A stretch of DNA of 53,833 nt from a virus (taxonomy: Duplodnaviria > Heunggongvirae > Uroviricota > Caudoviricetes), in the IMG/VR virus record IMGVR_UViG_2740892427_000003, one strand, 5' to 3'. The notes under the pieces were generated by a model. It had not been told where the DNA came from and searched no databases. It saw only the letters and a list, made by a program, of their open reading frames with translations. Position numbers and translations under genes: made by a program. Positions 2,924 through 46,528 of the stretch are shown here, piece after piece (within the stretch, counting starts at the first letter, position 1; each line of letters opens with the position of its first letter).

Positions 2924-4651
2924 TTATAATGGAAAATACTCAAACCCCGAAGCTCCTGACGACACATACTCACCCACGCTGACTGTACGCCACTGAGAAC
3001 CATCAAATGTCACCTGAAGCGGCCTGTAAGATACCCTGTCAATAAGGGTTTTGTTTCCGTCGTTGTAACCGCCAATCCCCGTAATCATTGCACCAATATC
3101 CAAATCCACTGCCCATGTAGTGCTGTCTGTTTGCGGCGCATAAGTCTGTTTATTACCCAGCCTGATACCCACAACCCGGCTCTTCCCGTCTGATGCCCCG
3201 GGCGGCCCCATCGGCCCGGTTTCTCCACGCTCACCTCTGGGACCGGGGTCGCCTTTCTCCCCTTTCGGTCCCTGCGCTCCCCGCGGACCAGCGGGGCCTG
3301 TTGCTCCCGTTTCACCTTTCGGACCCTGTGCTCCGGGGTCGCCTTTCTCTCCTTTCGGACCGGGAACACCACCTCCTGCTGCAGCCTCTTCTGCCTTTGT
3401 TTTCGCTTCATTTGCCACATCCATTGCCGCCTTCACGGCCTTCGGCGTGGCTGCCTTTGTTTCGTCATTACTGTCAGTATCACTGCTTAACTGCACCACA
3501 CCTTTCTGCGTCGTACTGGCATCCCGCTGGCTGACCGTATCCGGTTTGTTTTTTGTGCTGTAATCCACCCGCCAGTGGAAATACCGTGTGTCGCCGTAAA
3601 CCGTACAGGTACAGACCGTGCCATTAATAAACCCCGTTGCACCGTATTCGCCAATGGTGACCCGGACTATGGCAGCCTCATACGTTCCCATCACCTCAAT
3701 GACACAGCCACCCAGATTGAGTTTTCCCGGTCCGACATCTGTGATGACTTTATTCATTGACGCAAGCAGTGATGCCTTCATCATCCAGTAAGGCTGGTCA
3801 AATGCCCCTTTTTCTTTCAGCCAGGCAACAAACTCGCGTGTTTTCCATTCACCGGCCCCCGTATGAATGTCCCGCCCGTATACTCTGGCTGCTCCCACGG
3901 TGTTCAGAAACTTCACCTTATCCGGGATATCATCACCGTTTTTCGCTTTCTCCAGGCATCCGTCCGCTTTGTCCATTGCCGATTTCACCGCTTTCGGGGT
4001 GGCTGCCTTCGTTTCGTCATCACTGTTCGTTGTGCTGCTTAACTGCACAATTCCCTTCTGTGCCGTCGTCGCATCCGGTCCTCCCGGCTCGCCTTTTTCG
4101 CCCTTCTCTCCCCGTTCACCTTTCACACCCTGAAGCCCCTGTGGTCCTGTCTCACCCCGCTCACCCTTTGGCCCACGCTCGCCGGTATCGCCTTTTGGCC
4201 CGGGAATACCCTGCGGCCCGGTGTCCCCCTTATCCCCCTTCGGTCCCCGCGCATTCTCTGCCCGTTTTTTTGCCTCCTCCGCACTGGCTGCGGACGCTTC
4301 CGCACGTTTCAGGATTTCCGCTGCCACCGCTTCCAGCTCTGCAAGGGCTTTCGGGTAATACTGTGCGTCTTCCAGGTCCATCAGAAATTTATTCAGCGTT
4401 CCCGGTGCAGAATCCGCCTTCACCAGAATGTCACCCACATATGACGGCGCGTACCCTTCCGTGTTCAGCGTCACCCGGTACAACCCCGGCTCAACATCCA
4501 TACTGTAACTGCCGGTTTCCCCCGGCTGACCATACGCCACCGTAGTGACAATCACCGTCTCCGTTGTGCGTCGCGCTTTCAGCTCTATCGTGCATCCCGG
4601 TACCGCTTTTCCCGTACCATCCTTCAGCACACCCGATATTCTGACTGTCAT
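2924..4651 (-). CDS. stf: side tail fiber protein with collagen-like G-X-Y repeats
   Basis: 575 aa with two collagen-like [13 protein letters not shown] tracts and a duplicated KAATPKAVK segment; sits between J and tfa. Confidence 0.8.
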
Positions 4652-4793
4652 GGATTTCCCCCATAAAAAAACCGCAGTACCGGTTTCCCGGCCTGCGGTA
4701 AAATTTGTGGTTTGTTGGTGTTAAAACGGTGCCATCCGGCTGACCACCCTCAGCAACCGGTCGGCGGGGGATATTCTCCCCCGCCACGGTTTC

Positions 4794-4934
4794 TTACTGC
4801 TTACACTGTAAGAACGCCGCAATCTCCGCGCCCGCTATCCGGAACCGGAACTCGCACAGTGAACTGTGGGTGATCCAGATAATGAGCACTACCGTGATAC
4901 AAATCACGGTGGTTTTTAACGGTTTTTGCGACAT
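4794..4934 (-). CDS. Hok/Gef-family type I toxin-like small membrane protein (46 aa)
   Basis: Not in the ORF track (<60 aa). Translation MSQKPLKTTVICITVVLIIWITHSSLCEFRFRIAGAEIAAFLQCKQ has the Hok pattern (N-terminal TM helix, SLCE, aromatic-basic segment, E-AAF); AAGGAG Shine-Dalgarno 8 nt upstream of ATG. Confidence 0.5.
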   Translation of the reverse strand: MSQKPLKTTVICITVVLIIWITHSSLCEFRFRIAGAEIAAFLQCKQ

Positions 4935-5132
4935 AAACGCTTGCTCCTTTTACGGAGAGGCGCTAACCTTCCACTTGTTGAAGGTAGGAACGTCAGGCCT
5001 CGGGTTAAACATGAATGTTTGTCCGGGGCCTTTTCACATCCGGCCTTCAGGTGCTCCCTCCGGCCATCAGCCAAAGGCACCCGCGCATAATGTACGGTTT
5101 TTGTCTCCTTCCGGCAATCCGGCTCCTCATGA

Positions 5133-8100
5133 TCACGAAATACTGATACCCGCCGTGGACTTCTTCATCACGACAACCAGCAGATCGCTGATACTCGCTG
5201 TCGGGTACCATCCATTCACCAGCCAGGCAGACACAGAAAACTCCAGCGTCATATGCCCCCTTCCTGCAGGCATATCAATCACCCCTGAATACACCTGAGA
5301 CTCAGCCAGCGCCGTCCTTTCAAAAAGCACCCTGCCGTTACATTTCACCATCAGCCGGCATGATGAATAAATATCGTTATGCTCTCTCTCATGTTTAGCG
5401 CCGCTGAAAGCCACTGCCGGGATCACAATTTGCCGGTCAAAAGGCTGATCGTCATAAATCCTGACGGTAATGGTCCCCGATGGCCACCGCTCCGGTGCGC
5501 GGGAGTCCCGCGGGAAAGCCTTCCCCACGGTTTTAACAATATCGCCTTCAATCTGGTTGGCAGACAGTTTTCCAAGTATCCGGCAGTTCTGGTTAATGGT
5601 CACATTATTGAGCGTGCCCGAGTTCGCACTGATATGTCCGCTGATGTCCGCATTGCGGGCCGTCAGCCTGCCCTCCGGCGTCAGGGAGAACGTCGGGGGA
5701 TTGCCGGACGAGGTGATGCTCACTGCAAACAGTCGCTTCAGGAACACATCGTTCATGAACAGCTGATTCCCCTGCGCCACAAACAGCGGCGTGGTGTTGC
5801 CGTTCTCCGGGTTAATCATCGCGATACGGTCCGCCTGCAGCAGAATATTGCTCAGGGGCTGGCCATCAGCATCCTCAATCCCCGCACCAATACCGGCAAC
5901 ATACGGAATGCCGTTTTTCGTTTTCTGCACCTTCAGCATGTACAGCGCAGCCAGGTCGTGATTTGTGCCTGTCTGCACCCGCTGTATCTGCTGTATGGTG
6001 GCACTCTGGTCTTCCAGGGTTTTACTGACCGTCTGCGTGATTTCATTGCGGGTTTCGGTGATGGTGGTCTTCATCTCCGCCATCTCATCATCAAGCTGGC
6101 TGTTATCAATCAGCTCCCACATCCCCTGTGCCAGATGCAGTTTTCCTATCTTTTCCCGAAACAGCCCCAGATACCCTTCTGCATCATTGCTGGCCCGGCC
6201 ACTGGCTTCCACAAACGCAGATTTCCCCACCAGGTTGACGCTGCGCACATAAAACCAGAAATCCTTCCCCGGCTTAATGTGCGGGCCGGAGACACTCCAC
6301 TGGCTGCCTGTCCCCAGATAACGGGCAGAGGTTTCCACCTGAGATGTGTCTGCGATTTTTGCCTCCGAAAACCAGAATTCAAATTGTACCGTCGGGTCAT
6401 ACACCGTAAGATGCGGGACCGCCGTTATCTGATAATACCCCGGCGTCAGTTCAATGCTGGCCGGTGCTGCCGGTGCGTTAATCCGGAACGTGGTGGTGGC
6501 AGGTTCGCCCTGCTGGCCGTAGCTGTTTATCGCCCTGACCGTCAGGGTGTATTCCCCGGGCGGCAGGCCACTGAAACGGTGCTCCGTGTCGGCAGTGATA
6601 GCGCTGGTCACCAGGCGGCTGCTTTCACCACTGCCACTGGTCAGGCGCAGACTGAAGCGCACGCCCTTCACCACCCGCGGCGTGTCCCATTTCGCCAGCG
6701 CCAGATACTGGCCGTCTGAGGCACTCACCTCCACCGTGAGGTGCTGCACAGCCGGCGGGATGACGCTGTTCAGTGAACCGGAGAGCGGCTCAAAGGTGGC
6801 CCCGTTATCCACGATGGCTTCTTTTTCCGGCACATGCTGCACCGCCGTGATGGCAAAGGTGCCGTCCGTGTTTTCCCGGATGGAAACACAGCGGAACAGG
6901 CGACGACGCAGTGACGGCAGGGAGAGTCCCCACACACCGTATGTCTCCACGCCATCCGGCAGGACGCTGACCTGTATCCGGTCCGGGGCGGGGTGTGCGG
7001 TGATGTCCACGCGCACCGGCTTACCGCTGCCGTTAATCAGGTTCACCGTCGATGTCCCTGTCTCCGGCAGGGTCACCTCACGGTCCAGCGTCAGGGTACG
7101 GCTGGCGGCATCCATGGACAGGATACGTCCGCCGGTCAGGGTCCCGGCGTAGTCGTTATCACAGATTTCAATGATGTCACCGGGCGTGTGCCGCAGCCCC
7201 TGTGACCCGAGCATGAAATCCACCGTCTGCGTTTCCAGCAGTTCTGTCTTTATCACCCACAGTCCGGCACGGTGGGCCTGACCGCGGCTGGTACAGCCAA
7301 ACGCATCCATCTTCAGCAGATTGCGCCCGTAGCGCAGGATGGCGTCCGGGTCTTCCACCAGTTCAGTGGAAGTCTGCCAGCCGTTCTGCGGGTCGGTGTA
7401 ATTCACCTCCACCGCAGTGTGCCGGTCCTTCAGGGCACTGAAGCTGTAGCGGAACCCCACGCCGTTATCATCCACCACCACATCGCTGTTGGTGTACGGC
7501 CACACCACATCCGACGGACGGTCCTGAACGAACGTCAGCGTCTGGCCGTTCCATACCGGCATACAGCGCATCGCCGAGCAGAAATCCCCCAGAACATCCC
7601 AGACCTTACGCTGCTGTGACAGGTACGCATTGAAAGTCATCCGCGGCTCTGTGCCCCCGAAACCATCCGGGACCGTCTGGTCGCAGTACTGCCCGATGGC
7701 ATACAGTGCCCACTTGTCCACATCCGCGGCCCCCAGGCGTTTTCCCATGCCGTAGCGCGGGTGGGTCAGCATGTCCCACAGGCACCAGGCCGGGTTATTG
7801 CTGTATGCCGGTTTCAGACTGCCGTCCCAGATACCGCTGTAGGTGCGTTTTTCCGGGTCATAGTTTGACGGCACCTGAATGATGCGACCACGGATATGGT
7901 AGTTCACCGTCAGCTGCTGGCCACCAAACTGCTCCGCATCCACCTGCAGCCCCACAATCGCCGTGTTCGGGTAGCACTGTTTCACATCGATGATTTCGGT
8001 GTATGACGACCACAGCGTTCTGTTCTGCAGCTGGTCCGTGGTGCTGTCCGCCGTCTCCCTGACCATCCGGATGTTAAAGGGGCGCTCAGGGAGATTATTC

Positions 8101-8606
8101 AGAATCACCGACATCAGGTACTGCGAGGTGGTTTTGCCGTTAATGGTGATATCCTTCTCCGTCACCCAGTGCCCGTTACGCTCAAGCTGAATCAGCAGCC
8201 GGACAGAAGAGGGATTACGGTCACCCTTTGAGGTGGTCTCCACCAGTGACTGCACCCCGAAGGTGACCCGCAGACGGTCAATGTTCGCTGACGTGATGGT
8301 GCGCGTCACCGGCTTTGCCTTCGTCACCTCCACGCCCAGTGCGGTTTCTGCCCCGGAGGACTCAAAGCCTTCCGGCGGTGTCTGCTCCTGCTCCCCGGCA
8401 CGCCAGACGGCGGTCACACCGTGTATCACGGGATTACCGTCCGTGTCCGTCAGCGGGGTTTTGTTCACCAGAATACTCTGCAGTCCCTTCACCGGGCCTT
8501 CCACCGGTCCCTCACCGATGGCATCAATCACGCTCATCATCTGCGTGGATTTGAGATTGTCCTTCGCCTCACGCGGTGTGTGCCCCTTGCCGCCCCCTTT
8601 ACCCAC
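5133..8606 (-). CDS. J: tail tip / host specificity protein J
   Basis: 1157 aa; N-terminus [22 protein letters not shown] and long collinear similarity to lambda J as recalled; GTG start with GGAGAGGGGG Shine-Dalgarno. Confidence 0.95.
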
Positions 8607-8745
8607 TCTGTCCCCCTCTCCTGTCTGATGTCTGAATCTGTTTATGCCAGAAAACGACAGGCACCCCGGAGGGTGCCTGTGTCATGACGGAATAAAATTT
8701 CTGAAATTCTTCACATTTCCGGCAATTGCCTGTAGCCACTATAAT

Positions 8746-8854
8746 GACGCAGCGTTACAGTTTTTTTGCTCAATAAAAGCAATAATTATCAGACCTCCTT
8801 AAGGTGACTATTCGTCTCCCGTCAGTATCCGGCGATATTACGGGAGATTTTTTT
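8746..8854 (+). ncRNA. candidate sRNA, repeat unit 1 of 3 (ends in intrinsic terminator)
   Basis: TATAAT hexamer at 8740-8745; stem tctcccg/cgggaga at 8815-8847 followed by T7 at 8848-8854; no ORF. 5' end not defined. Confidence 0.35.
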
Positions 8855-8989
8855 GCTTCAGCCACACCACAACATCCTGCTCATTTACGCCACTGGTACC
8901 CTGGCGGTCATCCGTTCTGTAAACCTGCGACAGAAAAAGTCTGAATTTCTTCACATTTTCTGTACGTTCCCGTGGCAGATATCATTCCG

Positions 8990-9088
8990 GGGCGTTACAG
9001 TTTTTTCGGGTCAATAAAAACAAAACTCCTTGAACGTTAATCTTCATCGGTTCTGTCCCGCAGTCTCCGGACTCTGCGGGATTTTTTT
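8990..9088 (+). ncRNA. candidate sRNA, repeat unit 2 of 3 (ends in intrinsic terminator)
   Basis: Conserved core gcgttacagtttttt...aactccttgaacgttaatcttcatcg; stem cccgcag/ctgcggg at 9057-9080 followed by T7 at 9082-9088. Confidence 0.35.
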
Positions 9089-9181
9089 ATCCCGTCACTG
9101 GCCAGCCCGGGCATCACCACAACGGAATAAAAATTCTGAGTTTATTCACACTTCCGGCAATTGCCTGTAGCCGCAATAATG

Positions 9182-9279
9182 ACGCTGCGTTACTGTTCTT
9201 CTGCCCAAAAAAATAACTCCATAACGTTAATCTTCATCGTTATTTCCCGCAGCTCCGCTAACTCTGCGGGATTTTTTTT
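9182..9279 (+). ncRNA. candidate sRNA, repeat unit 3 of 3 (ends in intrinsic terminator)
   Basis: Shares the 5' block with unit 1 (AATAAT at 9175-9180) and the 3' core with unit 2; stem cccgcag/ctgcggg at 9246-9270 followed by T8 at 9272-9279. Confidence 0.35.
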
Positions 9280-9283
9280 ATTT

Positions 9284-9964
9284 TTATCCCCGCCCGATAA
9301 CCACCACTTTCCCGTCTCCGCCCTCATCACGGGTGCTGATATCCTGGGATATCCGTCGTGAACCAACCAGCATTTCACCGTAAGGCACCGGCATCGGGTT
9401 ACCCTGGGCAATCATGTTGTCCAGTGACGAAAAATACGTGTTCTGTTTACCGTTATCCGTACTTTTATACTCCGGCGTCTTTGCCTTCGGGGCCAGCATC
9501 TGAGCCACACCACCCAGTATCATGCTGGCACCCAGTGAGAACAGCATCGTGGTGGCAGTCAGCCCTCCGGCACTCAGGGCTGCGCCCCATGCCGCCAGTG
9601 TTGCACCACCAGTGAAAAATGACCCGACAATCGCTGCAACCCCCAGCACCACCTGAAAAACACCATTTCCCCCGGCTCCGGCCAGTCGCGGCATAATGTG
9701 GATGACCGCTCCCTCACCCAGTTGTTCGTGAAGACGGGCGTACACCGCCTCCGGTGCGGTATCCTCACCGGCAATACGTATCTGATACCAGCCTTCGTTC
9801 ATCTGACAGCGGAATCCCGGCACCTGCAGCGACAGGGCACGGATGGCCTCCGCTGCCGTGTTCACATACAGGCTGATGCGGCGACCAAATCGTTGTAAAT
9901 CCCCGTGAAGGCAGATGCGGACCAGTGGCGGTGACGCCAGACAGAATGCGTTCGTCGTTGCCAT
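9284..9964 (-). CDS. I: tail assembly protein I
   Basis: 226 aa; RICLHGDLQRFGRRI and C-terminal NGKQNTYFSSLDNM motifs as in lambda I. Confidence 0.9.
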   Translation of the reverse strand: MATTNAFCLASPPLVRICLHGDLQRFGRRISLYVNTAAEAIRALSLQVPGFRCQMNEGWYQIRIAGEDTAPEAVYARLHEQLGEGAVIHIMPRLAGAGGNGVFQVVLGVAAIVGSFFTGGATLAAWGAALSAGGLTATTMLFSLGASMILGGVAQMLAPKAKTPEYKSTDNGKQNTYFSSLDNMIAQGNPMPVPYGEMLVGSRRISQDISTRDEGGDGKVVVIGRG

Positions 9965-42200: not shown

Positions 42201-42356
42201 TTACTTCTCAGATTCGTAGTCTACGAAGACAGCAACCTCCGTCTGGCCGGTTCGGATTCGTACCTCGCAGAGGTCTTTCCTCGTTACCAGTGCCGTCACA
42301 ACAACGGTAATACAGATGACGATCAGGGCGATTAACATCGCCTTTTGCTGCTTCAT
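42201..42356 (-). CDS. Hok/Gef-family type I toxin (hokC/gef-like)
   Basis: MKQQKAMLIALIVICITVVVTALVTRKDLCEVRIRTGQTEVAVFVDYESEK matches gef/hokC as recalled; ATG 42354-42356. Confidence 0.75.
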   Translation of the reverse strand: MKQQKAMLIALIVICITVVVTALVTRKDLCEVRIRTGQTEVAVFVDYESEK

Positions 42357-42646
42357 AGCCTGCTTCTCCTTGCCTTTCGGCACGTAAGAGGCTAACCTAC
42401 GTTTGTGAAGCATAGATTGGGCCTCAGATTAATGTTAAGCGTCCTGCAAGACGCGTAATGTTAACTGGGGCTTTTCTCTGTCTGCCTTACGGCGGCATGC
42501 CCGAGGCAGACAGCCTCAAGCACCCGCAGCAATTCTACTTAACTCTTCTTTCCCCGCAAACCGTTTTTATCCCCAGCGGCAAATCGAATACACCACCAGC
42601 GCCACCGCCATTGCAATACCAACATTTGAGAAGGCCTCAGGCCAGC

Positions 42647-45606: not shown

Positions 45607-46528
45607 AAGCTCCCACAGCTTCCAGGCCGTTTCCGTTGCTGATAAATCCGTTGTCACGTTCCCACTGTTCGCGTGCTGCCCGGATTTCCTGAACTGCCCG
45701 TGATGCCGTGCCACCTGATGCTGCATGGCTTACCCCCTTGCTGACTGGTTTTACCTGTGCCCTGACGTGCTGCACGTGACGGGCAAATTTCTGCTCCCAC
45801 TGAACCTGCGTGAAAACCTTCCCCTCCGCCATCCAGTAATCCCGGAATGCGGCAAGCTCAGCAGGTGTAAATTCCGGCTCAGGCAGAGCCATACCCCACA
45901 CTGCTGCCCGTTGTCGAAAATCCGGCGACGGCTGCCAGACAGTAGTCATCGAAAATTTCCCGATGGGTTCGCTCAGGCCGTCCAGGTATTCAGGTTCGGC
46001 TGTCTGCAACGGCGCACCATGCGACTCACTGGTCGGAATACTCTCGCGTTCATGCACGTTATGTGTGGGGTTTAATTCTTTTAGATCTGTATCTTTATTA
46101 GTTGCTTTTGTGTTTGCGTCATGTTCAAACACAACACCAACATTTGTTTGAACGCCTGTTAAATCTCTCTCTTGTTTTGTTTGAACATATGCTTCCTTTC
46201 TGCTTCTTCTGGCCTGAACAGATGCTTTTCCGGCGGCTGATTTTTTGGTTAATTTTTCCCTGACTGATGCCAGATCTTCCTCAATCCGAAGATGCACCCA
46301 TTCATCGCCGTTATCGCAAAAAAACTCCCGCAAGGATGGTTCCACATCAGCCCATCGCTCGTTAGTCAGACGGGAAATTTTTGCCAGCCTGTTTTTAGGT
46401 ATTGGTTTCCCTGTTTGCCAGTAATTGAACATCAACAACAAATACGCGCCGTGCTCCTCTGCGGACAAATGCATGGTGTCAGCCAGGTAATCAGCTATGT
46501 ACAGTTGCATGTATGGTAATGCGGCCAT
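45518..46528 (-). CDS. replication initiation protein, YdaU-like (DUF1376)
   Basis: N-terminal YMQLYIADYLADTMHLSAEEHGAYLLLMFNYWQTGKPIP; start set to ATG 46526-46528 with GAGG upstream. Confidence 0.55.
   Translation of the reverse strand: MAALPYMQLYIADYLADTMHLSAEEHGAYLLLMFNYWQTGKPIPKNRLAKISRLTNERWADVEPSLREFFCDNGDEWVHLRIEEDLASVREKLTKKSAAGKASVQARRSRKEAYVQTKQERDLTGVQTNVGVVFEHDANTKATNKDTDLKELNPTHNVHERESIPTSESHGAPLQTAEPEYLDGLSEPIGKFSMTTVWQPSPDFRQRAAVWGMALPEPEFTPAELAAFRDYWMAEGKVFTQVQWEQKFARHVQHVRAQVKPVSKGVSHAASGGTASRAVQEIRAAREQWERDNGFISNGNGLEAVGAYGGGVFEPLDSEERGRTFEALDCPDWCDD

Follow-up and report, generated by a model that had tools for sequence, protein, structure and literature searches.

The stretch of DNA analyzed here, a caudoviricete sequence of 53,833 nucleotides (IMG/VR record IMGVR_UViG_2740892427_000003; hereafter the window), contains a 481-bp gap (4652-5132) in its tail region. 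This gap separates the tail-tip gene J (open reading frame (ORF) 5133-8606, minus strand; stop codon 5133-5135) from the start (4651) of the tail-fiber gene stf (ORF 2924-4651, minus strand). The sole family-matching ORF of the gap, on the minus strand at 4794..4934, is a hok-family toxin gene of 46 amino acids plus a stop codon, which translates as MSQKPLKTTVICITVVLIIWITHSSLCEFRFRIAGAEIAAFLQCKQ and is preceded 9 nt 5' of its ATG by the Shine-Dalgarno sequence AAGGAG (4944-4949, minus strand). In RefSeq this very ORF carries the annotation "Hok/Gef family protein" (WP_000078852.1), and NZ_AP045172.1, a record with 99.6% identity to the window over its first 25 kb, has coding sequence coordinates that match the window ORFs in the J-hok-stf region. 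The gap in this E. coli prophage holds a complete hok/sok-type cassette; its gene and family figure in existing annotation, and toxicity has been reported for a near-identical peptide.

The 46-residue peptide matches the Pfam HOK_GEF profile (PF01848) with 43.5 bits (E = 2.4e-11) against a gathering cut-off of 22 bits, its residues 10-44 aligning with profile positions 8-42 of 42. By inspection, its M1, C12, T14, L26, C27, E28 and E37 are the counterparts of the positions conserved in more than 80% of Hok proteins (M1, C16, T18, L30, C31, E32 and E41; bioRxiv 10.1101/2025.08.07.668861). An alignment of nine peptides shows M1, Q3, K4, C27, E28, E37, A39 and F41 to be invariant, and the subfamily as a whole displays the pattern MSQK...SLCE...AEIAAFLQCKQ. 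The scores obtained with the NCBIfam models for the HokA equivalog (NF007290; 38.2 bits versus a cut-off of 89) and the Hok subfamily (NF007279; 37.2 bits versus a cut-off of 73) are under their cut-offs; hence, as judged by sequence comparison, the peptide is a Hok-family member in a separate 46-residue cluster and not an ortholog of hokA-E or gef. The initial annotation of this DNA had placed a Hok-like gene in the gap, which is borne out by the ORF at 4794-4934, its AAGGAG, the Pfam match of 43.5 bits and a full-length match of the leader to Rfam model RF01794 (E = 1e-9). The comparison with hokA-E and gef that it had suggested held at the level of the Hok/Gef family by Pfam, but not at that of orthology.

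The gene is short and was left uncalled in the ORF track, and a strong terminator stands just upstream of stf, as might also be seen if the ORF were incidental and the gap a mere regulatory or terminator spacer between J and stf. This explanation has practically no chance of being correct, as it is already refuted at the sequence level by the Pfam match (E = 2.4e-11) and by conservation of the peptide, which is kept at 52-98% identity across genera with conservative substitutions outnumbering disruptive ones. Moreover, the cassette also occurs in contexts with neither J nor stf nearby.

A bearing on toxicity comes from the survey of Escalera-Maurer et al. (bioRxiv 10.1101/2025.08.07.668861), in which 45 Hok homologs were tested by arabinose induction and 42 were toxic, the only non-toxic peptides being 19_179, 60_1482 and 69_1540. 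Homolog 79_1563 of that survey is identical to the window peptide at 45 of 46 positions, with R instead of Q as the last residue; it represents a high-abundance cluster, was included in the tested panel and is absent from the three named non-toxic peptides. Also in the tested panel, and likewise absent from these three, are 72_1589 and 72_1621 of the high-abundance cluster 72, which correspond to the 933W-type and P2-type copies aligned in this study. Via its one-residue variant, the window peptide may be taken as toxic by proxy only.

The predicted hok transcript and its conserved fold

The comparative analysis is based on an alignment (A2) of 20 homologs, all of them distinct, that represent E. 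coli, E. albertii, Salmonella, Serratia and Yersinia, from which a consensus structure was derived by RNAalifold; counts of homologs given below refer to this set. Conservation starts exactly at GGGTGCC (5082-5076) and stops at GGCACC (4733-4728), with divergent flanks on either side. The full-length hok mRNA is predicted to span ~419 nt of the minus strand (4664..5082), from a +1 near 5082 (GGGUGCC) to the T-run of a terminator. Its putative sigma-70 promoter (5089..5117, minus strand) begins 16 nt past the J stop codon and consists of a -35 element TTGCCG (5117-5112), a 17-nt spacer and a -10 element TACATT (5094-5089). As predicted from sequence it matches 8/12 consensus positions, which is under the scan threshold. 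TTGCC[GC]-17-TA[ACG]ATT recurs in copies whose upstream flanks are otherwise unrelated, among them those of 933W and of the P2 type, with the same spacing to GGGTGCC. At the opposite end a predicted intrinsic terminator, CCGCAGGCCGG-GAAA-CCGGUACUGCGG followed by U8 (4664..4698, minus strand), ends 13 nt before the stf ATG and was missed on this strand by the terminator scan. Its sequence is specific to the J-stf context, most other copies having a different hairpin and T-run 20-40 nt after the fbi-like element described below. The hok leader (4923..5082, minus strand) aligns end to end with the Rfam 'sok' model RF01794 (model positions 1-157 of 157; 48.5 bits, E = 1.1e-9), and this model matches the hok-mRNA strand at both hok loci of the window. 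Other Rfam matches in the gap, namely to mir-9436, Clostridiales-2 and isrK (E = 0.7-1.5), were dismissed as chance matches to hairpins.

The 359-nt core of the mRNA (4724-5082) folds with -167 kcal/mol (z = -6.96), and both the minimum free energy and the centroid structures pair its 5' and 3' ends. The partners are a tac-like 5' element (5062..5081, minus strand) and an fbi-like fold-back element (4728..4748, minus strand) that is complementary to the mRNA 5' end. The duplex between the 5' 24 nt and the 3' 30 nt attains -36.1 kcal/mol, with ~19 bp formed with 4748-4728, versus -18.9 +/- 3.3 kcal/mol after shuffling of the 3' segment (0/1000 shuffles as good). This closing helix (columns 1-8 with 375-381 of the alignment) is 97% paired in the 20 homologs and nearly invariant, and therefore shows no covariation.

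Covariation is found elsewhere in the consensus structure, which comprises 75 pairs with 97.5% of cells paired and includes 15 pairs with compensatory changes; shuffled controls yield 7.9 +/- 1.6 such pairs (0/500 reach 15), and controls with slid partners 1-8. The best-supported helices, with four covarying pairs each, are a stem-loop after the stop codon and a helix between the Sok-target region and the 3' untranslated region (UTR). The stem-loop (helix 13; GGCGGGGGAGAATATCCCCCGCC, 4763..4785, minus strand) directly follows the hok stop codon and has nine pairs, four of them with compensatory changes, that are 99.4% paired. It would mark where the processed, active mRNA ends and be the counterpart of the 3' stem-loop of plasmid R1, which protects truncated hok mRNA from RNases (PMC9841398). 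The other (helix 5; columns 104-116 with 348-360) has ten pairs, four with compensatory changes, with 93% of cells paired, and joins part of the Sok-target region of the leader (4971..4983, minus strand) to the 3' UTR at 4748-4760 in the full-length fold. Two hairpins flanking the gene had initially been likened to hok fold-back and terminator elements. Both are present, and the CCGCAG...CTGCGG hairpin with its T-run (4664-4698) is the terminator as supposed; the GC hairpin at 4763-4785, however, is the 3' stem-loop, and the fold-back element is that at 4728-4748.

The initiation region of hok is likewise enclosed in secondary structure. Its Shine-Dalgarno sequence is sequestered in a local hairpin, AGCGC...GCGU, in which CUCC pairs with GGAG (helix 7; 99% paired), and the start region (4926-4934) forms a 9-bp helix with the codons for E-I-A-A-F (4814-4822; helix 8; 100% paired). 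Taken together, the closing, Shine-Dalgarno and start-codon helices are 97-100% paired and nearly invariant. In the window mRNA at full length, the Shine-Dalgarno sequence has an unpaired probability of 0.00; the means for the 20 homologs are 0.02 for the full-length mRNA, 0.11 for a 3'-truncated mRNA and 0.02 for a truncated mRNA with the Sok target blocked. The Sok-target region rises upon truncation from a mean unpaired probability of 0.30 to 0.46 in the homologs, and the window segment 4971-4983 from 0.14 to 0.41 upon removal of the 3' end.

A predicted Sok-like antisense RNA and the apparent lack of mok

A Sok-like antisense promoter is predicted on the plus strand at 4941..4969 (-35 TTGCTC 4941-4946, 17-nt spacer, -10 TAACCT 4964-4969), its -35 element overlapping the hok Shine-Dalgarno sequence on the opposite strand. 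It is found in 20/20 homologs, with TAACCT invariant, and the canonical locus of the window (see below) has TTGCCT-17-TAACCT at the equivalent site. We infer that the primers used for promoter-less mutagenesis of sokW (PMC8621323) cover the latter element. A consensus promoter scan of the gap detected neither this promoter nor that of hok, both of which were identified by comparative alignment only.

The RNA predicted to issue from this promoter is ~59 nt long (4976..5034, plus strand); an unstructured 5' tail of ~19 nt leads into a GC-rich hairpin (4996-5030), which is followed by a U-run (5031-5034). With both ends placed by inference, it folds with -21.4 kcal/mol (z = -2.5) and is complementary to leader positions ~49-107. 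An antisense RNA of this tail-plus-hairpin form is predicted in all 20 homologs: it is 54-59 nt long and ends in a U-run in 16 of them, and is longer (71-72 nt) in the remaining four, the Yersinia copies and two from Salmonella, because their hairpin lacks a U-run. The hairpin exists in two sequence variants, and the stem is kept in both. The Sok tail and its target are the most variable part of the cassette and differ between the window and the ~97%-identical phage 1720a-02, in which GTTCCTACCTTCAACAAGTGG of the window (minus strand, 4972-4993) is replaced by CATTCATCCTAAGCAAGTGA. In sequence this segment looks like a recombined or diversifying specificity region. Such variability would be expected of a specificity determinant and may argue against cross-talk with a hokW-type Sok.

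The initial annotation had called for a search for both an antisense sok promoter and an overlapping mok frame. The former is present and conserved, as described above, while a conserved mok frame was not recovered among the 20 homologs. In the window the hok frame is closed by a TAA (4950-4952) 15 nt upstream of the ATG, which rules out an in-frame mok as in the canonical locus. Two further candidates were examined and rejected: a 20-residue ORF (5012..4950), considered as a mok substitute acting by termination-reinitiation, is shortened to 10 codons in phage 1720a-02 despite the 97% identity of the latter, and 933W lacks it altogether; a 54-residue GTG ORF (5080..4916), which starts at mRNA position +3, is broken by indels and stops in the homologs. 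More generally, no ORF with an ATG, GTG or TTG start runs from the leader into the hok initiation region in 11 of the 20 homologs, and the other nine have non-homologous leader ORFs in different positions and frames. Furthermore, in 14/20 homologs each of the three frames is closed by a stop situated 9-59 nt upstream of the hok ATG, that is, downstream of the Sok-target GAGGC (~-66), and in these 14 a Sok-controlled leader ORF is therefore excluded whatever its start codon. As a positive control, the same ORF scan recovers a 70-residue mok and its Shine-Dalgarno sequence at the canonical locus.

Judging from these sequences, the 46-residue Hok subfamily appears to lack a conserved mok. This is the sole point of the present analysis not found in the literature searched, which yielded no account of a mok-less hok, nor a name for the tail-region locus. 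The published homolog catalog analyzed coding sequences only, mok being explicitly excluded (bioRxiv 10.1101/2025.08.07.668861), and gives no description of mok, Sok, mRNA structure or insertion slot for the clusters concerned, 79 (79_1563) and 72 (72_1589 and 72_1621). We tentatively propose, at odds that we place a little short of even, that the 46-residue 'AAFLQCKQ' subfamily (clusters 72 and 79), which lambdoid, Stx and P2-like phages have carried through the Enterobacterales, represents a hok/sok lineage after loss of mok. In such a lineage tac/fbi would persist together with the Sok target and the antisense RNA, and the ancestral mok Shine-Dalgarno sequence (GAGGC) might have been re-used as an RNA switch or standby element, with Sok controlling hok translation directly and not via translational coupling. 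If confirmed, a mok-less subfamily would offer a natural test case for Sok-type control of hok without such coupling.

Spread of the cassette and its proposed control and role

Of 5426 complete E. coli genomes, 121 have the J-hok-stf arrangement, as does phage 1720a-02, and a segment of ~380 nt that is 75-79% identical occurs in ~1750 genomes. Copies of about 79% identity are located downstream of lom in 933W, Sp5 and other Stx phages, immediately so in the first two, and at the terminus of P2-like prophages from E. coli and Serratia, where they follow ogr. Others are found after lom in Shigella phage 75/02, beside chromosomal genes, and adjoining unrelated genes in Salmonella and Yersinia. 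Found in such unrelated contexts, the J-stf cassette is, on comparative sequence evidence, a mobile accessory insert in the tail region. In phage lambda the same accessory-gene slot downstream of J is used by lom, the gene for an outer-membrane protein. The slot in the window lacks lom, and the J stop codon is separated from the hok -35 element by only 16 nt. In the 933W/Sp5 copy the hok -35 element overlaps the T-run of the lom terminator. A collection with one genome per species contains only five subfamily loci. In two of these, from a Planococcaceae metagenome-assembled genome (L006, DEQA01000038.1) and a Vagococcus sp. (L007, NZ_JBQPOM010000071.1), the peptide is that of the E. coli P2-type copy and the DNA is closely similar; these Firmicutes-labelled copies are probably contamination or mis-binning and not genuine transfer.

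Annotation of the cassette in public records is uneven. The phage 933W record (AF125520.1) leaves the 46-residue hok (1671-1811, after lom) unannotated, and NC_029120 calls the 933W-type homolog 'MokW-like host killing', which is a misnomer. Several phage records thus leave the cassette unannotated or mislabel it 'MokW-like'.

Plasmid R1's hok/sok system, the type I paradigm of Gerdes and co-workers (summarized in PMC9841398 and PMC4147584), shares with the window cassette a small Hok membrane peptide, a long leader and the tac/fbi 5'-3' closure of the full-length mRNA. In both, the stop codon is succeeded by a stable stem-loop, the fbi element and the terminator, in this order, and a short cis-antisense RNA, with its -35 element over the hok Shine-Dalgarno sequence, has its body complementary to the leader and not to the hok start. 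Unlike R1, the window cassette lacks the mok leader ORF; its peptide has 46 residues and ends in AAFLQCKQ, whereas R1 Hok has 52 and ends in AAFMAYESGK; its leader scores only 48.5 bits in Rfam; and its mRNA processing and RNase III dependence would be assumed by analogy with R1. Another point of comparison is tisB/istR-1 (PMC4147584), where the antisense RNA likewise has its binding site far upstream of the structured ribosome-binding site of the toxin, and the stretch between the two holds no leader ORF; by this likeness it is a possible mechanistic analog for a mok-less hok. It differs in that TisB belongs to an unrelated toxin family, IstR-1 is divergently encoded and the standby site in the window is hypothetical.

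In analogy with R1 hok/sok (PMC9841398, PMC4147584), the full-length hok mRNA would be closed and inert. Slow 3' trimming to the stem-loop would then remove the fbi-like segment along with the 3' UTR partner of the Sok-target region, the leader would refold, and the Sok-like RNA would bind and silence or destroy the mRNA for as long as its synthesis continues. As the cassette has no mok leader ORF, the antisense RNA must act directly. It might let the anti-Shine-Dalgarno sequence re-pair with the Shine-Dalgarno sequence; it might, as in tisB/IstR-1, block a single-stranded standby region for ribosomes; or it might provoke cleavage by RNase III. Thermodynamic modelling is weakly consistent with the first of these, a direct RNA switch; standby-site occlusion and RNase III cleavage are equally possible.

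We consider the J-stf gap to hold one self-contained hok/sok-type type I toxin-antitoxin cassette of the 46-residue Hok subfamily, present as an accessory insert in the tail region, with a probability of roughly 0.88. Several points weigh against it. For this exact locus the case is built from sequence, modelling and a proxy that is a one-residue variant. Both promoters are weak matches (8/12 positions, or 3/6 in the -10 hexamer) that the consensus scan missed, and with 48.5 bits the RF01794 match at 4923-5082 falls short of the gathering score (59 bits). Conservation, and not covariation, backs the tac/fbi closing helix; because the 5' and 3' ends are almost invariant, the comparison of cognate with non-cognate 5'/3' duplex energies is only marginal (-29.0 versus -28.0 kcal/mol, p ~0.03). 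In the model, opening of the window Shine-Dalgarno sequence upon truncation is tiny (0.00 to 0.05) for a translation that would have to be activated without mok. Finally, a frameshifted hok allele is common, and the toxin is thus dispensable and often lost. In this allele a 1-nt insertion (T) after codon 23 yields a 44-residue product (P0046), annotated 'hypothetical protein' and present on 241 contigs; in one example (L029; NZ_CP045712.1, 391780-392379) gpJ is also annotated as frameshifted in the same strain.

Some of these observations would suit a decaying, silent relic, recognizable by sequence and unexpressed or unregulated like several chromosomal hok loci of E. coli K-12: the weakness of both promoters, the widespread 1-nt-insertion allele (241 contigs; 'hypothetical protein' in H15-H18) and a Shine-Dalgarno sequence that stays closed in the modelled window mRNA even after truncation. 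Against decay, the 121 genomes that share this arrangement have, like the window, an intact ORF, compensatory changes maintain RNA helices across genera, the promoter hexamers, mRNA ends and antisense terminator are conserved while the flanks are not, and a one-residue variant of the peptide is reported as toxic. Consequently, we regard a relic as quite improbable.

The biological role of the J-stf cassette is speculative. Since the cassette has the orientation of the late operon, read-through following induction would run against the antisense promoter; such head-on transcription might release Hok late and aid lysis, as has been proposed for hokW-sokW. In its strongest form, this would make the cassette a late-lysis accessory more than an addiction module: Hok would be produced from the Q-antiterminated late transcript J -> hok -> stf, and depolarization would advance holin triggering and phage release. 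The orientation of hok along with J and stf, facing the antisense promoter, would fit this, as would the location of the 933W-type copy, also in the late region after lom. Moreover, with the hokW-sokW system of Sp5, sokW RNA is lost after mitomycin C and phage release is doubled (PMC8621323). However, copies after ogr in P2-like prophages and beside chromosomal genes are placed where late read-through is not expected, and we deem this role rather unlikely. Since it concerns role and not identity, it is compatible with a hok/sok-type cassette. Prophage stabilization or phage exclusion might be alternative roles.

The second hok locus and other accessory genes

The surmise that the prophage carries two hok-family loci proved correct. 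The second, at 42201..42525 (minus strand; Rfam sok 117.7 bits), is the canonical locus referred to above and comprises a gef-like gene for a 51-residue Hok (42201-42356, minus strand), an in-frame 70-residue mok ORF (42201-42413, minus strand) and a sok region. The published cloning primers YO-357 and YO-369 (PMC8621323) match the first and last codons of the gene at 42201-42356, and on this basis the locus is hokW-sokW of Sakai prophage 5 (Sp5). Like the tail-region cassette, hokW-sokW (Takada et al. 2021, PMC8621323) is a prophage-borne lambdoid hok/sok system of pathogenic E. coli whose antisense -10 element is TAACCT. It differs in that HokW has 51 residues and is ~41% identical to the 46-residue peptide, a mok ORF is present and the locus lies in the early-right region and not in the tail region. 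The characterized hokW-sokW is thus the other locus of the window, and not the copy of the tail region or those relatives that follow lom in 933W and Sp5. Genes of the hok family are enriched in prophages, and 3.5% of hok-carrying phages encode two copies (bioRxiv 10.1101/2025.08.07.668861).

Several other features of the window are of note. A full-length porin gene annotated as ompC (11524-12678, minus strand; coordinates via the near-identical record L028) lies inside the tail operon, between the genes for minor tail protein L and a phage tail protein, and represents a second accessory insertion in the tail region. J is separated from the tail assembly gene (9284-9964) by 677 bp (8607-9283) that contain neither an annotated gene nor a minus-strand ORF of at least 60 amino acids. 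Downstream of the Q antiterminator gene along late transcription, and before the lysis genes, there are two tandem copies of the small RNA family STnc100 (34778-34990 with 164.6 bits and 35270-35476 with 134.9 bits, both on the minus strand) as well as three tRNA genes (36601-36847, minus strand). This stretch is the usual accessory region of Stx-type lambdoid prophages, and no stx is annotated in the closest record. In addition, L028 annotates a PemK/MazF-family type II toxin and a YdaT-family toxin (37986-38387 and 45964-46401; window coordinates ~650 nt higher), which, along with the two hok loci, amount to several toxin modules in one prophage.

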